Shown: piece after piece, positions 4,206-38,377 of the stretch
Numbering within the stretch: the first letter of the stretch is position 1
Layout of the letters: every line of letters starts with the position of its first letter
Source of the DNA: Escherichia coli
Lineage (GTDB): Bacteria; Pseudomonadota; Gammaproteobacteria; Enterobacterales; Enterobacteriaceae
Assembly: GCF_003790525.1 (NCBI RefSeq)
Contig: NZ_CP033635.1
Length of the DNA stretch: 64,000 nucleotides
Direction: 5' to 3' (one strand)
Translations under genes and position numbers: made by a program
The notes under the pieces: model-generated
The model's input: only the letters and a program-made list of their open reading frames with translations
What the model was told of the DNA's origin: nothing
Databases searched by the model: none

Positions 4206-4570
4206 GTAACTCCCGGGTTGATTTATGCTCGGGAATATTTGTTGTTGAGTTTTTGTATGTTCCTGTTGGTATAATATGTTGCGGCAATTTATTTGCCGCA
4301 TAATTTTTATTACATAAATTTAACCAGAAAATATTCCGTAATCCATTGTAAACATTGAATGTTTATCTTTTCATGATATCAACTTGCGATCCTGATGTGT
4401 TAATAAAAAACCTCAAGTTCTCACTTACAGAAACTTTTGTGTTATTTCACCTAATCTTTAGGATTAATCCTTTTTTCGTGAGTATTCTTAGCGCCAGTTT
4501 GGTCTGGTCAGGAAATAGTTATACATCATGACCCGGACTCCAAATTCAAAAATGAAATTAGGAGAAGAGC
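4206..4570 (+). promoter_or_regulatory. cadBA promoter region (Pcad) with CadC-binding sites expected
   Basis: 365-bp AT-rich spacer between cadC and cadB; individual binding sites not mapped from sequence. Confidence 0.4.
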
Positions 4571-5905
4571 ATGAGTTCTGCCAAGAAGATCGGGCTATTT
4601 GCCTGTACCGGTGTGGTTGCCGGTAATATGATGGGGAGCGGTATTGCATTATTACCTGCGAACCTAGCAAGTATCGGTGGTATTGCTATCTGGGGTTGGA
4701 TTATCTCTATTATTGGTGCAATGTCGCTGGCGTATGTATATGCCCGACTGGCAACAAAAAACCCGCAACAAGGTGGCCCAATTGCTTATGCCGGAGAAAT
4801 TTCCCCTGCATTTGGTTTTCAGACAGGTGTTCTTTATTACCATGCTAACTGGATTGGTAACCTGGCGATTGGTATTACCGCTGTATCTTATCTTTCCACC
4901 TTCTTCCCAGTATTAAATGATCCTGTTCCGGCGGGTATCGCCTGTATTGCTATCGTCTGGGTATTTACCTTTGTAAATATGCTCGGCGGTACCTGGGTAA
5001 GCCGTTTAACCACTATTGGTCTGGTGCTGGTTCTTATTCCTGTGGTAATGACAGCTATTGTTGGCTGGCATTGGTTTGATGCTGCGACTTATGCTGCTAA
5101 CTGGAATACTGCGGATACCACCGATGGTCATGCGATCATTAAAAGTATTCTGCTCTGCCTGTGGGCCTTCGTGGGTGTTGAATCCGCAGCTGTAAGTACT
5201 GGTATGGTTAAAAACCCGAAACGTACCGTTCCGCTGGCAACCATGCTGGGTACTGGTTTAGCAGGTATTGTTTACATCGCTGCGACTCAGGTGCTTTCCG
5301 GTATGTATCCGTCTTCTGTAATGGCAGCTTCCGGTGCTCCGTTTGCAATCAGTGCTTCAACTATCCTCGGTAACTGGGCTGCGCCGCTGGTTTCTGCATT
5401 CACCGCCTTTGCGTGCCTGACTTCTCTGGGCTCCTGGATGATGTTGGTAGGCCAGGCAGGTGTACGTGCCGCTAACGACGGTAACTTCCCGAAAGTTTAT
5501 GGTGAAGTCGACAGCAACGGTATTCCGAAAAAAGGTCTGCTGCTGGCTGCAGTGAAAATGACTGCCCTGATGATCCTCATCACTCTGATGAACTCTGCCG
5601 GTGGTAAAGCATCTGACCTGTTCGGTGAACTGACCGGTATCGCAGTACTGCTGACTATGCTGCCGTACTTCTACTCTTGCGTTGACCTGATTCGTTTTGA
5701 AGGCGTTAACATCCGCAACTTTGTCAGCCTGATCTGTTCTGTACTGGGTTGCGTGTTCTGCTTCATCGCGCTGATGGGCGCAAGCTCCTTCGAGCTGGCA
5801 GGTACCTTCATCGTCAGCCTGATTATCCTGATGTTCTACGCTCGCAAAATGCACGAGCGCCAGAGCCACTCAATGGATAACCACACAGCGTCTAACGCAC
5901 ATTAA
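4571..5905 (+). CDS. cadB: Lysine:cadaverine antiporter
   Basis: 444-aa polytopic APC-family transporter; conserved position between cadC and cadA. Confidence 0.95.
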   Translation: MSSAKKIGLFACTGVVAGNMMGSGIALLPANLASIGGIAIWGWIISIIGAMSLAYVYARLATKNPQQGGPIAYAGEISPAFGFQTGVLYYHANWIGNLAIGITAVSYLSTFFPVLNDPVPAGIACIAIVWVFTFVNMLGGTWVSRLTTIGLVLVLIPVVMTAIVGWHWFDAATYAANWNTADTTDGHAIIKSILLCLWAFVGVESAAVSTGMVKNPKRTVPLATMLGTGLAGIVYIAATQVLSGMYPSSVMAASGAPFAISASTILGNWAAPLVSAFTAFACLTSLGSWMMLVGQAGVRAANDGNFPKVYGEVDSNGIPKKGLLLAAVKMTALMILITLMNSAGGKASDLFGELTGIAVLLTMLPYFYSCVDLIRFEGVNIRNFVSLICSVLGCVFCFIALMGASSFELAGTFIVSLIILMFYARKMHERQSHSMDNHTASNAH

Positions 5906-5984
5906 TTAAAAGTATTTTCCGAGGCTCCTCCTTTCATTTTGTCCCATGTGTTGGGAGGGGCCTTTTTTACCTGGAGATATGACT

Positions 5985-8132
5985 ATGAACGTTATTGCAA
6001 TATTGAATCACATGGGGGTTTATTTTAAAGAAGAACCCATCCGTGAACTTCATCGCGCGCTTGAACGTCTGAACTTCCAGATTGTTTACCCGAACGACCG
6101 TGACGACTTATTAAAACTGATCGAAAACAATGCGCGTCTGTGCGGCGTTATTTTTGACTGGGATAAATATAATCTCGAGCTGTGCGAAGAAATTAGCAAA
6201 ATGAACGAGAACCTGCCGTTGTACGCGTTCGCTAATACGTATTCCACTCTCGATGTAAGCCTGAATGACCTGCGTTTACAGATTAGCTTCTTTGAATATG
6301 CGCTGGGTGCTGCTGAAGATATTGCTAATAAGATCAAGCAGACCACTGACGAATATATCAACACTATTCTGCCTCCGCTGACTAAAGCACTGTTTAAATA
6401 TGTTCGTGAAGGTAAATATACTTTCTGTACTCCTGGTCACATGGGCGGTACTGCATTCCAGAAAAGCCCGGTAGGTAGCCTGTTCTATGATTTCTTTGGT
6501 CCGAATACCATGAAATCTGATATTTCCATTTCAGTATCTGAACTGGGTTCTCTGCTGGATCACAGTGGTCCACACAAAGAAGCAGAACAGTATATCGCTC
6601 GCGTCTTTAACGCAGACCGCAGCTACATGGTGACCAACGGTACTTCCACTGCGAACAAAATTGTTGGCATGTACTCTGCTCCGGCAGGCAGCACCATTCT
6701 GATTGACCGTAACTGCCACAAATCGCTGACCCACCTGATGATGATGAGCGATGTTACGCCAATCTATTTCCGCCCGACCCGTAACGCTTACGGTATTCTT
6801 GGTGGTATCCCACAGAGTGAATTCCAGCACGCTACCATTGCTAAGCGCGTGAAAGAAACACCAAACGCAACCTGGCCGGTACATGCTGTAATTACCAACT
6901 CTACCTATGATGGTCTGCTGTACAACACCGACTTCATCAAGAAAACACTGGATGTGAAATCCATCCACTTTGACTCCGCGTGGGTGCCTTACACCAACTT
7001 CTCACCGATTTACGAAGGTAAATGCGGTATGAGCGGTGGCCGTGTAGAAGGGAAAGTGATTTACGAAACCCAGTCCACTCACAAACTGCTGGCGGCGTTC
7101 TCTCAGGCTTCCATGATCCACGTTAAAGGTGACGTAAACGAAGAAACCTTTAACGAAGCCTACATGATGCACACCACCACTTCTCCGCACTACGGTATCG
7201 TGGCGTCCACTGAAACCGCTGCGGCGATGATGAAAGGCAATGCAGGTAAACGTCTGATCAACGGTTCCATTGAACGTGCGATCAAATTCCGTAAAGAGAT
7301 CAAACGTCTGAGAACGGAATCTGATGGCTGGTTCTTTGATGTATGGCAGCCGGATCATATCGATACGACTGAATGCTGGCCGCTGCGTTCTGACAGCACC
7401 TGGCACGGCTTCAAAAACATCGATAACGAGCACATGTATCTTGACCCGATCAAAGTCACCCTGCTGACTCCGGGGATGGAAAAAGACGGCACCATGAGCG
7501 ACTTTGGTATTCCGGCCAGCATCGTGGCGAAATACCTCGACGAACATGGCATCGTTGTTGAGAAAACCGGTCCGTATAACCTGCTGTTCCTGTTCAGCAT
7601 CGGTATCGATAAGACCAAAGCACTGAGCCTGCTGCGTGCTCTGACTGACTTCAAACGTGCGTTCGACCTGAACCTGCGTGTGAAAAACATGCTGCCGTCT
7701 CTGTATCGTGAAGATCCTGAATTCTATGAAAACATGCGTATTCAGGAACTGGCTCAGAATATCCACAAACTGATTGTTCACCACAATCTGCCGGATCTGA
7801 TGTACCGCGCATTTGAAGTGCTGCCGACGATGGTAATGACTCCGTATGCTGCATTCCAGAAAGAGCTGCACGGTATGACCGAAGAAGTTTACCTCGACGA
7901 AATGGTAGGTCGTATTAACGCCAATATGATCCTTCCGTATCCGCCGGGAGTTCCTCTGGTAATGCCGGGTGAAATGATCACCGAAGAAAGCCGTCCGGTT
8001 CTGGAGTTCCTGCAGATGCTGTGTGAAATCGGCGCTCACTATCCGGGCTTTGAAACCGATATTCACGGTGCATACCGTCAGGCTGATGGCCGCTATACCG
8101 TTAAGGTATTGAAAGAAGAAAGCAAAAAATAA
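5985..8132 (+). CDS. cadA: Inducible lysine decarboxylase
   Basis: 715 aa from MNVIAILNHMGVYF…; PLP-dependent fold-type I decarboxylase with wing, core and C-terminal domains; ORF-track ORF trimmed to the recognised start. Confidence 0.95.
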   Translation: MNVIAILNHMGVYFKEEPIRELHRALERLNFQIVYPNDRDDLLKLIENNARLCGVIFDWDKYNLELCEEISKMNENLPLYAFANTYSTLDVSLNDLRLQISFFEYALGAAEDIANKIKQTTDEYINTILPPLTKALFKYVREGKYTFCTPGHMGGTAFQKSPVGSLFYDFFGPNTMKSDISISVSELGSLLDHSGPHKEAEQYIARVFNADRSYMVTNGTSTANKIVGMYSAPAGSTILIDRNCHKSLTHLMMMSDVTPIYFRPTRNAYGILGGIPQSEFQHATIAKRVKETPNATWPVHAVITNSTYDGLLYNTDFIKKTLDVKSIHFDSAWVPYTNFSPIYEGKCGMSGGRVEGKVIYETQSTHKLLAAFSQASMIHVKGDVNEETFNEAYMMHTTTSPHYGIVASTETAAAMMKGNAGKRLINGSIERAIKFRKEIKRLRTESDGWFFDVWQPDHIDTTECWPLRSDSTWHGFKNIDNEHMYLDPIKVTLLTPGMEKDGTMSDFGIPASIVAKYLDEHGIVVEKTGPYNLLFLFSIGIDKTKALSLLRALTDFKRAFDLNLRVKNMLPSLYREDPEFYENMRIQELAQNIHKLIVHHNLPDLMYRAFEVLPTMVMTPYAAFQKELHGMTEEVYLDEMVGRINANMILPYPPGVPLVMPGEMITEESRPVLEFLQMLCEIGAHYPGFETDIHGAYRQADGRYTVKVLKEESKK

Positions 8133-8145
8133 TTAGCTCGTACAA

Positions 8146-8173
8146 GGGAAGTGGCTTGCCACTTCCCTTTTTT
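8146..8173 (+). terminator. cadBA operon rho-independent terminator
   Basis: Stem gggaagtggc / ccacttccc with loop ttg, followed by TTTTTT. Confidence 0.7.
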
Positions 8174-8190
8174 GCTCATAAGGAGAACAC

Positions 8191-9648
8191 ATGAAAACAC
8201 CCTCACAGCCGCGCGCGATATACTATATCGTGGCGATCCAAATCTGGGAGTACTTCAGTTTTTACGGCATGCGTGCCTTACTCATTCTCTATCTCACCCA
8301 TCAGCTTGGTTTTGATGATAACCATGCCATCAGCCTGTTCAGCGCATATGCTTCTCTGGTTTACGTTACCCCTATTCTCGGCGGCTGGCTTGCCGACCGC
8401 CTGCTCGGCAACCGCACTGCAGTGATTGCCGGCGCGCTGTTAATGACCCTTGGCCATGTGGTGCTGGGCATTGATACAAATTCAACCTTTAGCCTGTATC
8501 TGGCGCTGGCAATCATTATTTGTGGCTACGGTTTATTCAAATCAAACATCAGCTGTTTGCTTGGCGAGCTCTACGACGAGAACGATCATCGACGTGATGG
8601 CGGTTTTTCGCTGCTGTATGCTGCGGGCAATATCGGTTCTATCGCAGCCCCCATCGCCTGCGGCCTGGCTGCTCAGTGGTATGGATGGCATGTTGGCTTT
8701 GCCCTTGCGGGAGGCGGCATGTTTATCGGTTTGTTGATTTTCTTAAGTGGTCATCGTCATTTCCAGTCCACGCGTAGTATGGATAAAAAAGCGCTCACTA
8801 GCGTCAAATTTGCCTTACCAGTATGGACCTGGTTAGTGGTGATGCTCTGTTTAGCCCCAGTATTTTTTACCCTGCTGCTGGAGAACGACTGGTCCGGATA
8901 TTTGCTGGCGATCGTTTGCCTCATTGCCGCACAAATCATTGCCCGCATGATGATCAAATTCCCCGAACACCGCCGTGCTCTTTGGCAAATTGTATTGTTG
9001 ATGTTTGTCGGGACGTTGTTCTGGGTACTGGCACAACAGGGCGGCAGTACCATCAGCTTGTTTATCGATCGCTTTGTGAATCGTCAGGCATTCAATATTG
9101 AAGTACCTACAGCACTATTCCAGTCGGTGAATGCTATTGCGGTGATGCTCGCTGGGGTTGTTCTGGCCTGGCTGGCGTCGCCAGAAAGCCGCGGCAATTC
9201 AGCATTGCGCGTCTGGCTGAAGTTTGCCTTTGGCTTACTGCTGATGGCTTGTGGCTTTATGTTGCTGGCATTTGATGCCCGACATGCAGCGGCTGGCGGT
9301 CAAGCGTCAATGGGCGTGATGATATCCGGGCTGGCGCTAATGGGCTTTGCTGAACTCTTTATTGACCCAGTGGCGATTGCGCAAATCACGCGTCTGAAAA
9401 TGTCTGGCGTATTAACCGGTATTTATATGCTGGCAACAGGCGCGGTCGCCAACTGGCTGGCAGGCGTCGTGGCACAGCAGACGACAGAGTCGCAAATTAG
9501 CGGTATGGCAATTGCCGCTTACCAGCGATTCTTTTCTCAGATGGGAGAGTGGACGTTGGCTTGTGTCGCGATCATCGTGGTATTGGCCTTTGCTACCCGT
9601 TTTCTGTTTAGCACGCCGACGAATATGATACAGGAGAGCAACGATTAA
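8191..9648 (+). CDS. dtpC: Proton-dependent dipeptide/tripeptide permease (POT family)
   Basis: 485-aa MFS/POT transporter; matches E. coli DtpC (YjdL) in sequence and position. Confidence 0.92.
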
Positions 9649-9884
9649 CTGTCGTAAAAACAATTGGTTATGAATAAATTAACTTTCAGTTTATCACACT
9701 AGTAAATCGAGATTAATAAGTCATTTAAACCATTTTTATGGTTATTTATTAGTGATATCAACTTGAGGTAAGCGTTAGTTTCGATAAGATAAACTGAGTT
9801 ATTAATAGTCGAGGCAGATAATACAGTGTACCGATCTGTCTCTTTATCTACGCTAAATTGAAAGCTGGATTTAGAGGAACCAAA

Positions 9885-31342: not shown

Positions 31343-32434
31343 ATGCGTTTTCTGCGCCGACCAATATCGCTGCGCCAACGGCTGATATTGACCATCGGGG
31401 CCATTTTGTTGGTGTTTGAGCTGATCAGCGTCTTCTGGCTATGGCATGAAAGTACCGAGCAGATTCAGCTGTTTGAGCAGGCGCTACGCGACAATCGCAA
31501 CAACGATCGCCACATCATGCGTGAGATCCGCGAGGCGGTCGCCAGCCTGATTGTCCCCGGCGTCTTTATGGTCAGCCTGACGCTATTTATCTGCTATCAG
31601 GCGGTACGCCGCATCACCCGCCCGCTGGCGGAGCTGCAAAAAGAGCTGGAAGCGCGCACCGCCGACAACTTAACGCCCATTGCCATTCACAGCGCCACCC
31701 TCGAAATCGAAGCGGTGGTTTCAGCGTTAAACGATCTGGTCAGTCGCCTGACCAGCACGCTGGATAACGAAAGGTTGTTTACCGCTGACGTCGCGCACGA
31801 ACTGCGAACGCCACTGGCGGGGGTGCGTTTGCATCTGGAACTGCTGGCGAAAACGCATCACATTGATGTAGCACCGTTAGTGGCTCGACTTGATCAGATG
31901 ATGGAGAGTGTCTCCCAGCTGCTGCAACTGGCGCGTGCCGGACAGTCATTTTCTTCCGGGAATTATCAACATGTAAAACTGCTGGAAGATGTCATTCTCC
32001 CCTCGTATGACGAACTCAGTACCATGCTCGACCAGCGACAGCAAACCCTGCTATTGCCAGAGAGCGCCGCCGACATCACCGTTCAGGGTGATGCAACCCT
32101 GCTGCGGATGTTATTGCGAAACCTGGTAGAAAACGCCCATCGTTACAGCCCGCAAGGCAGCAACATTATGATTAAGCTGCAAGAAGATGGCGGAGCAGTC
32201 ATGGCCGTTGAAGATGAAGGACCGGGTATTGATGAGAGTAAATGCGGGGAGTTGAGTAAAGCGTTTGTACGTATGGACAGCCGTTATGGCGGGATTGGTC
32301 TGGGGTTAAGTATTGTCAGCCGCATTACACAGTTGCATCACGGGCAGTTTTTCCTGCAAAACCGGCAAGAGACTTCCGGCACGCGGGCCTGGGTACGGCT
32401 GAAGAAAGATCAGTACGTGGTAAACCAGATATAA
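31343..32434 (+). CDS. basS: Sensor histidine kinase BasS (PmrB)
   Basis: 363 aa from MRFLRRPISLRQRL…; transmembrane, HAMP, HisKA and HATPase domains. Confidence 0.93.
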   Translation: MRFLRRPISLRQRLILTIGAILLVFELISVFWLWHESTEQIQLFEQALRDNRNNDRHIMREIREAVASLIVPGVFMVSLTLFICYQAVRRITRPLAELQKELEARTADNLTPIAIHSATLEIEAVVSALNDLVSRLTSTLDNERLFTADVAHELRTPLAGVRLHLELLAKTHHIDVAPLVARLDQMMESVSQLLQLARAGQSFSSGNYQHVKLLEDVILPSYDELSTMLDQRQQTLLLPESAADITVQGDATLLRMLLRNLVENAHRYSPQGSNIMIKLQEDGGAVMAVEDEGPGIDESKCGELSKAFVRMDSRYGGIGLGLSIVSRITQLHHGQFFLQNRQETSGTRAWVRLKKDQYVVNQI

Positions 32435-32499
32435 AGAAAGCTGCTGACCACCAGCACGCTGAACACGGTAGTTAAACTTTCATAAACACGGTTTTTCAT
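32410..32499 (-). CDS. pmrR: 29-aa membrane peptide PmrR, convergent with and overlapping the basS 3' end
   Basis: Below the ORF-track cut-off; the reverse complement reads MKNRVYESLTTVFSVLVVSSFLYIWFTTY*; its last 25 nt overlap the basS coding end. Confidence 0.7.
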   Translation of the reverse strand: MKNRVYESLTTVFSVLVVSSFLYIWFTTY

Positions 32500-32569
32500 T
32501 GCACTCTCCTCCGTTAACCTGGAGGAGAGTATGCGCGTCAGAGATTAAGTGAACCTTAAGAGTTCAATT

Positions 32570-38218: not shown

Positions 38219-38237
38219 TTGTATTGTGATCGGTAAG

Positions 38238-38312
38238 CCGGATAAGGCGCTCGCGCCGCATCCGGCAACGATGCCGACTGCCTGATGCGACGCTGACCGC
38301 GTCTTATCAGGC
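38238..38312. repeat. BIME: two REP elements in inverted orientation
   Basis: gccggataaggcgctcgcgccgcatccggca and gcctgatgcgacgctgaccgcgtcttatcaggc. Confidence 0.8.
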
Positions 38313-38377
38313 TTCCCTCTCATCTGTATAAATTTCGAACTACACTTAACTGGCTTCTCTTAACTGAGGTCACCATC

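Follow-up and report, generated by a model that had tools for sequence, protein, structure and literature searches.

An intrinsic terminator between cadA and dtpC as a probable attenuator within an acid-induced operon of Escherichia coli

Introduction

The dtpC gene of Escherichia coli (formerly yjdL) raises a simple question: how is it transcribed at all? In the 64,000-nucleotide stretch of DNA analyzed here (contig NZ_CP033635.1; hereafter the window), dtpC lies directly behind cadA, and the short gap between the two genes is occupied by a hairpin and a run of T residues, the makings of an intrinsic terminator. The cadB and cadA genes are read from a promoter in the cadC-cadB intergenic region, which we take from established knowledge of the cad operon to be the CadC-dependent, acid- and lysine-induced cadBA promoter. 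A preliminary description of this locus, made from the sequence, held that the gap leaves no room for a promoter and offered two sources of dtpC RNA, a promoter lying inside cadA or read-through of the terminator by the acid-induced cadBA transcript.

Here we argue that cadB, cadA and dtpC probably make up a single acid-induced operon that contains an attenuating intrinsic terminator between cadA and dtpC. Support for this reading comes from the anatomy of the junction, the promoter-free gap, covariation in the hairpin, the synteny of cadA and dtpC, and published data on co-induction and on the drop in RNA across the hairpin. By the same reading, the induced dtpC RNA would be physically continuous with cadBA RNA, and the arrangement would serve to co-express, at a limited dosage, an importer of Lys/Arg dipeptides with the lysine decarboxylase system. 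Existing data show both the terminator after cadA and the acid induction of yjdL, and in the literature searched we found no paper that links the two.

Anatomy of the cadA-dtpC junction

Direct reading of the sequence bears out the tight packing that had been described. The cadA stop codon, the hairpin with its T-tract and the dtpC start codon all fall within a 58-nucleotide (nt) intergenic gap, and the ATG sits 18 nt past the last T of the terminator, with 17 nt between the U-tract of the transcript and the start codon (Table 1). The Shine-Dalgarno (SD) sequence of dtpC begins 7 nt past the U-tract, and 12 nt separate it from the core stem. This core comprises 9 bp, six of them G-C pairs, and two A-U pairs (8144-8145 with 8168-8169) lengthen it to 11 bp. 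The two hallmarks of an intrinsic terminator, a G+C-rich stem-loop and an adjoining U-rich tract, are both found at 8144-8173, and the hairpin, with its 11 pairs, was the best terminator-like match in the 8 kb scanned. Its folding free energy was computed at -15.1 kcal/mol for the core, -17.6 kcal/mol for the extended stem and up to about -20 kcal/mol (z = -3.4), and an equally good fold arose in 1 of 200 shuffles.

Two other identities for the element were considered and rejected. On the minus strand the stem is not followed by a T-tract, which makes this a unidirectional element and not a bidirectional terminator. Nor did it belong to a known RNA family, as Rfam 15 gave no match at gathering score in 7900-8400 and only chance matches (E of at least 0.24).

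The same junction is found in other E. coli genomes. The identities of cadA (lysine decarboxylase) and dtpC (annotated as a dipeptide/tripeptide permease) follow from positions 7000-9800 of the window, which are 100% identical to many annotated E. coli genomes, and the K-12 sequence listed 5' of dtpC in the table of Schumacher 2023, TCATAAGGAGAACAC, is identical to that of the window. Of 5209 complete E. coli genomes that carry the 106-bp junction, 5206 match it at 99% identity or more, and each has a single copy.

Table 1. Coordinates of the genes and sequence elements around the cadA-dtpC junction, in window positions.
Feature	Position	Strand	Sequence	Basis or remark
cadC-cadB intergenic region, cadBA promoter site, presumed origin of read-through	4206..4570	+		position by annotation
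cadB, lysine/cadaverine antiporter	4571..5905	+		annotation, ORF (open reading frame) list
cadA, inducible lysine decarboxylase	5985..8132	+		stop TAA at 8130-8132
Stop-to-stem spacer, 13 nt	8133-8145	+	TTAGCTCGTACAA	sequence variable, length conserved
Terminator hairpin including A-U extension	8144..8169	+		folding, covariation, conservation
Stem 5' arm	8146-8154	+	GGGAAGTGG	sequence reading
Loop (CUUG tetraloop in RNA)	8155-8158	+	CTTG	sequence reading
Stem 3' arm	8159-8167	+	CCACTTCCC	sequence reading
T-tract (T6), U-tract of the intrinsic terminator	8168-8173	+	TTTTTT	abuts the stem, followed by GC
Linker	8174-8179	+	GCTCAT	
dtpC Shine-Dalgarno sequence	8180-8185	+	AAGGAG	5 nt 5' of the ATG
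Linker	8186-8190	+	AACAC	
dtpC (formerly yjdL), proton-coupled dipeptide permease	8191..9648	+		ATG at 8191; ORF list, annotation

Conservation of the hairpin and of the gene order

We examined orthologous junctions by scanning one genome per species for DtpC relatives. This yielded 54 loci, drawn from Escherichia, Klebsiella, Raoultella, Kluyvera, Salmonella subsp. arizonae and diarizonae, Buttiauxella, Trabulsiella, Pluralibacter, Yokenella, Phytobacter, Superficieibacter, Pseudescherichia, Shimwellia and Serratia. At all 54 loci cadA lies directly upstream of dtpC on the same strand. The gap between them is mostly 54-72 nt (no more than 72 nt in 41 of the 54), and the junction hairpin is retained in 50. 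Where the junction departs from this plan, palindromes resembling repetitive extragenic palindromic (REP) sequences are often involved: one stands in place of the hairpin in four loci (L017, L028, L029 and L032) and has been inserted after it in L009, L024, L033, L036 and L048. These GC-rich elements (GCCGGGTGGCGC... / ...GTAGGCCGGGTAAGCG...) stretch the gap to 87-212 nt in several genera. In two species the T-tract is lost and the gap is longer. The full order cadC-cadB-cadA-dtpC-lysU also occurs in K. pneumoniae (KPN_00498-00502).

Covariation indicates that the hairpin is maintained by selection, and it is more conserved than the synonymous sites of cadA. Across 38 distinct short orthologous junctions the nine core pairs were formed in 99.1% of cells, a value matched by none of 500 shuffles and compared with 48-74% pairing in slid controls. 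Compensatory changes were present at three stem positions, and 28 cells showed double-sided changes; examples are a U-A pair that has become C-G in Kluyvera and the stem of Serratia, which is re-coded in part. The mean pairwise difference was 0.16-0.19 in the stem arms, as against 0.53 in the spacer, 0.54 in the linker from SD to ATG and 0.36 at cadA synonymous sites. Downstream of the stem, the T run of the orthologs is 3-7 nt long, mostly 5-6, and the next base is always C or G, while an SD motif of the form (A)AGGAG or GGGAG is retained in all orthologs.

The spacer ahead of the stem is the least conserved part of the junction, yet the distance from stop codon to stem is held at 11-14 nt in 37 of the 38 junctions. 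This constancy would be expected if translation tuned read-through: ribosomes finishing cadA 13 nt before the stem would transiently occlude the base of the hairpin, and the leak would scale with the coupling of transcription and translation. Such an effect would refine a read-through model and not compete with it. The tR2 reporter series of Li 2016 (PMC4824070) offers a precedent, as termination there falls when the stop-to-hairpin distance is shortened, from an efficiency of about 0.9 beyond 27-30 nt, through intermediate and sequence-dependent values at 17-18 nt, to near zero at 5-9 nt. The stop codon of cadA, at 11-13 nt from the hairpin, falls within the span of distances over which termination in the reporter system was lowered by trailing ribosomes. 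Judged by RNA level, however, the terminator behind cadA still seems to be about 97% effective; RNA drops 30- to 50-fold across it in vivo, as detailed below, and any ribosome occlusion is therefore weak or minor. The constant spacing could also merely reflect the rarity of indels, and one ortholog has a spacing of only 8 nt. We consider it rather unlikely that translation tunes the leak in this manner. The pyrBI attenuator (cited in PMC4824070) is another case of terminators suppressed by nearby ribosomes; at cadA no leader peptide or regulatory pause is involved, and any tie to that class would be by analogy.

Some orthologs show a further structural feature. In Buttiauxella, Raoultella and a strain labelled Enterobacter sp. 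(L006, L008, L010, L014, L015 and others), the spacer carries CTCC ahead of the stem, and in the minimum-free-energy fold this CTCC pairs with the GGAG of the dtpC SD around the terminator hairpin. An outer helix of the form TC.../...GGA takes the equivalent role in the K. oxytoca group (L018, L019, L021 and L049). Pairing of either kind could mask the SD on read-through RNA in those orthologs; the E. coli junction has no spacer-SD pairing.

A degenerate form of the hairpin pattern was also used to scan metagenomes. Among the 108 loci recovered, 81 were cadA-hairpin-dtpC junctions and 27 were unrelated terminators from other organisms, and at none of the 108 was cadA with its hairpin followed by a gene other than dtpC. 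A near-identical palindrome, GGGAAGCGG-NNNN-CCGCTTCCC-TTTT, is found as an apparent terminator after unrelated genes on non-enterobacterial contigs (L058, L061, L070 and L073, together with 23 metagenome loci). A mobile or repeated element was considered and rejected: the junction occurs once per E. coli genome, and the 27 unrelated matches are convergent simple terminator palindromes.

Search for a dtpC promoter

The expectation that the gap has no room for a promoter held up on inspection: no TAnnnT motif resembling a -10 element, and no sigma-70-like match, occurs anywhere in its 58 nt. A consensus scan found no sigma-70-like site on the plus strand between 6422 and 9858. When the search was relaxed over 7400-8195, there was no 9/12 sigma-70 match and no extended -10, and only two 8/12 matches were recovered, at 7680-7709 and 7902-7930. 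As neither the consensus nor the relaxed scan yielded anything convincing, we set aside a promoter in the gap or at the 3' end of cadA. A conserved promoter embedded in the cadA 3' end was likewise set aside for want of local constraint on synonymous sites; across 45 diverged orthologs, synonymous diversity does not fall over the final 200 nt of cadA (0.28-0.40, versus 0.21-0.50 gene-wide).

The layout of the junction constrains where dtpC transcripts can begin. Because a strong SD lies at 8180-8185, dtpC mRNA starts upstream of 8180. Initiation in the few bases that separate T-tract and SD is untenable as well, since neither the T-tract nor the 3' arm provides a -10 element. From the position of the SD and the absent -10 it follows that every transcript expressing dtpC crosses the hairpin and the T-tract, even one initiated within cadA. 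Read-through is therefore required whichever promoter supplies the polymerases. This recasts the choice posed in the preliminary description: the published data presented below agree with read-through of the terminator by the cadBA transcript under acid, but the two sources are not mutually exclusive, as a promoter inside cadA also needs read-through.

We nevertheless weighed whether dtpC might be driven mainly by its own promoter embedded in cadA, one that is possibly acid- or stress-responsive, with co-induction reflecting shared conditions and the hairpin and T-tract still to be passed. The two weak 8/12 promoter-like matches are the sequence evidence in its favor. Against them stand the final 730 nt of cadA, where neither an extended -10 nor a sigma-70 match of 9/12 occurs, and the undiminished synonymous diversity of the cadA 3' end. 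A promoter so placed would moreover precede a terminator of 30- to 50-fold effect and would need strength, yet there is no excess cadA signal. In a full-text literature search, with curated databases not covered, we found no paper discussing either a dtpC promoter or a cadBA-dtpC transcript.

Expression of dtpC under acid

Published measurements allowed us to follow dtpC alongside cadBA. In the microarray study of Kannan 2008 (PMC2270276), K-12 was moved from neutral to acid pH, and log2 induction at 5 and 10 min after the shift was 3.1 and 4.7 for cadB, 1.2 and 3.2 for cadA, and 1.2 and 2.6 for yjdL. In both the timing and the size of its acid induction, yjdL tracks cadA.

A quantitative comparison was possible with the K-12 RNA-seq and Ribo-seq data of Schumacher 2023 (PMC10746267), taken from supplementary files 3 and 5 as triplicate means in normalized units. 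At pH 4.4, 5.8 and 7.6, respectively, RNA stood at about 1469, 311 and 3.6 for cadB, about 2322, 534 and 3.3 for cadA, and about 79, 11 and 4.8 for dtpC. Ribosome footprints in the same order were about 2176, 460 and 2.5 for cadA and about 132, 9.3 and 5.9 for dtpC. From these values, the induction of dtpC at pH 4.4 comes to about 16-fold for RNA and about 22-fold for footprints, and dtpC RNA amounts to 3.4% of cadA RNA at pH 4.4 and 2.1% at pH 5.8. A level of 2-3% of cadA for induced dtpC at the far side of the hairpin fits termination there. Translation efficiency at pH 4.4 was 1.6-1.8 for dtpC versus about 0.9 for cadA, and taken together the numbers agree with a terminator that takes away about 97% of the RNA signal and with productive translation of the leaked RNA.

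Several points weigh against tracing this RNA to the cadBA promoter. The order of the columns in the supplementary files (pH 4.4, 5.8 and 7.6; footprints, then RNA) was inferred and not read from a header; as a check, the cadA RNA log2 fold changes of 7.44 and 9.39 in the main text of that paper compare with 7.3 and 9.5 as recomputed. At pH 7.6, dtpC RNA (4.8) exceeds cadA RNA (3.3), so a trace of dtpC transcription does not come from the cadBA promoter, which hints at an additional weak promoter inside cadA. Between pH 5.8 and 4.4 the induced increment of dtpC grows about 12-fold versus 4.3-fold for cadA, and a constant read-through fraction therefore fits inexactly. Steady-state RNA ratios, in addition, blend termination efficiency with differences in mRNA stability. 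No source that we found reported CadC-dependence of dtpC induction. For neither dtpC nor cadA did start sites, 3' ends or modules come to light in the supplementary data of Conway 2014, Yan 2018, Adams 2021, Sastry 2019 and Kim 2012, and the literature searched gave no direct evidence for a transcript running from cadBA into dtpC or for RNA ending at the T-tract.

The slight basal excess of dtpC over cadA and the proportionally greater rise of dtpC at the lower pH also count in favor of the embedded promoter described above. However, silent genes listed in that table show values similar to this basal level of about 5 normalized units. Given this and the sequence evidence, we judge it quite improbable that a promoter within cadA is the main driver of dtpC.

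It could alternatively be proposed that the hairpin does no more than close the cadBA operon, as terminator and 3' stabilizer, that the dtpC RNA seen under acid is a non-functional leak, and that real expression occurs under unsampled conditions or signals. The strength of the terminator, which brings RNA down to 2-3%, would agree with this, as would the poor expression of dtpC in the conditions found and the replaceability of the exact element, seen in the REP-like palindrome of four species and in the lost T-tract and longer gap of two. The adjacency of cadA and dtpC in 54 of 54 loci, mostly with the same narrow range of gap lengths and with a strong SD kept, is hard to reconcile with an irrelevant linkage. 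The read-through RNA is also well translated, with efficiency and footprint induction as given above, and the gap holds no alternative promoter. A purely accidental leak is in our view very unlikely.

Proposed mechanism and comparison with known systems

We favor instead a single acid-induced operon that is attenuated between cadA and dtpC. Several characteristics expected of such an operon are found here: a co-directional gene, no promoter after the terminator, co-regulation in the literature, and a gene order conserved across species. In the mechanism that we propose, RNA polymerase from the CadC-dependent cadBA promoter would mostly halt at the hairpin and U-tract past cadA, and termination would yield abundant cadBA mRNA with a protective, stable 3' hairpin. 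A few percent of polymerases would pass the terminator. On the read-through RNA the hairpin would be followed, 12 nt on, by a strong and unpaired SD, permitting efficient translation of dtpC. DtpC would thereby be switched on with CadB and CadA, at about 1/30 to 1/50 of the cadA RNA level. So steep a step-down would make sense: induction raises cadBA several hundred-fold, and DtpC, a polytopic membrane protein, would be kept from being overproduced.

Attenuators inside operons are familiar in E. coli, as between rplL and rpoB, and in rpsU-dnaG-rpoD, where a terminator lies between rpsU and dnaG. Operon-internal partial terminators that set unequal expression are a class cited in Li 2016 (PMC4824070), and both partial terminators within operons and operons extended by read-through are well-established designs. 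The cadA-dtpC junction resembles the rplL-rpoB and rpsU-dnaG examples in having a co-directional, promoterless downstream gene, a hairpin and U-tract between the genes, and co-regulation at a lower level. It differs from them in that the step-down is much steeper, to about 2-3% of the upstream RNA, and in that the dtpC start is unusually near, the SD and ATG following the U-tract by 7 and 18 nt. A further difference is that the cadBA-dtpC read-through transcript is one that we infer from sequence and gene-level RNA.

Read-through as a route to downstream expression is known from other work as well. Operon variants that arise through terminator read-through were reportedly found by SMRT-Cappable-seq in the study of Yan in 2018. 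Terminator read-through is also reported to drive a downstream gene in the vtrB circuit of V. parahaemolyticus (PMC10971746). These cases are alike with dtpC in that downstream expression would need polymerase to pass an intrinsic terminator. For dtpC no regulatory feedback is implied, and the basis here is comparative genomics and gene-level expression, not transcript mapping.

Function of DtpC and the Cad module

The substrate preference of DtpC suggests why its gene might be kept behind cadA. According to published work, DtpC is an atypical E. coli proton-coupled oligopeptide transporter (POT) that prefers dipeptides with a C-terminal Lys or Arg. Residues Y21 and D392, which are implicated in specificity, are invariant in 49 cadA-linked orthologs. 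DtpC could supply peptide-bound lysine to CadA, a plausible pairing whose physiological side is our own suggestion: a physiological link of DtpC with CadA appears in none of the papers that we found, and the cad operon is absent from the DtpC structure paper.

A more far-reaching extension, possible but in our estimate rather unlikely, would make DtpC a conserved third part of the Cad acid-resistance module, limited in dosage. It would import Xaa-Lys dipeptides at low pH to supply CadA with lysine, and a terminator leak, set by the conserved 13-nt spacing from stop codon to hairpin through partial ribosome occlusion, would hard-wire its level at a few percent of that of cadBA. Were the attenuated-operon reading true, even short of this extension, dtpC would join the CadC regulon without a CadC site of its own, and there would be an explanation for why a Lys/Arg-dipeptide permease always stands behind a lysine decarboxylase. 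The operon reading also suggests peptide-bound lysine as a fuel for the Cad acid-resistance system. The junction would itself be a clean natural example of a strong terminator that lowers expression roughly 30- to 50-fold within an operon. For annotation, dtpC ought not to be handled as an independent transcription unit with a missing promoter.

Other features of the window

The cadB-cadA intergenic region (5906-5984) holds a second junction in the same operon with the succession of stop codon, hairpin, T-run, SD and ATG. The hairpin there has a 12-bp stem, formed by about 5921-5932 with 5953-5963 around a 21-nt interior, and folds with -27.7 kcal/mol (z = -2.7). In Escherichia it is followed by T6 (5963-5968) and the cadA SD. 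From Escherichia to Serratia its outer arms (GGCTCCTYCC ... GGGAGGGGCC) recur in the orthologs, as does an inner GTCAC/GTGAC hairpin; the T-run does not. RNA-seq shows no drop from cadB to cadA (PMC10746267), so this hairpin is not an effective terminator, and it may be a processing or stability element.

Downstream of dtpC, the gap before lysU (9649-9884; 236 nt) is AT-rich and holds no convincing intrinsic terminator. Given so terminator-poor a gap, dtpC read-through transcripts might continue towards lysU, a gene that is annotated as 'lysS' in the RefSeq record.

Upstream of cadC, positions 1-2660 of the window are the end of a genomic island, with genes for a DUF4942 protein, a ParD/ParE toxin-antitoxin pair and a DUF957 protein and an integrase remnant. 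In strain SMS-3-5 the equivalent place is taken by the dsbD-dicD-tRNA-Phe region; collinearity with the window is lost upstream of cadC and the junction is unaffected. Of 5426 genomes, only 365 have the island arrangement over at least 80% of the query; strains XDL and CM2 are 100% matches. ARAGORN found no tRNA anywhere in the 64-kb window. Two Rfam matches reached gathering score, the enterobacterial small RNA STnc630 at 32403-32568 on the minus strand (183 bits) and the nucleoid-associated RNA naRNA4 at 38236-38313 on the plus strand (87.5 bits).

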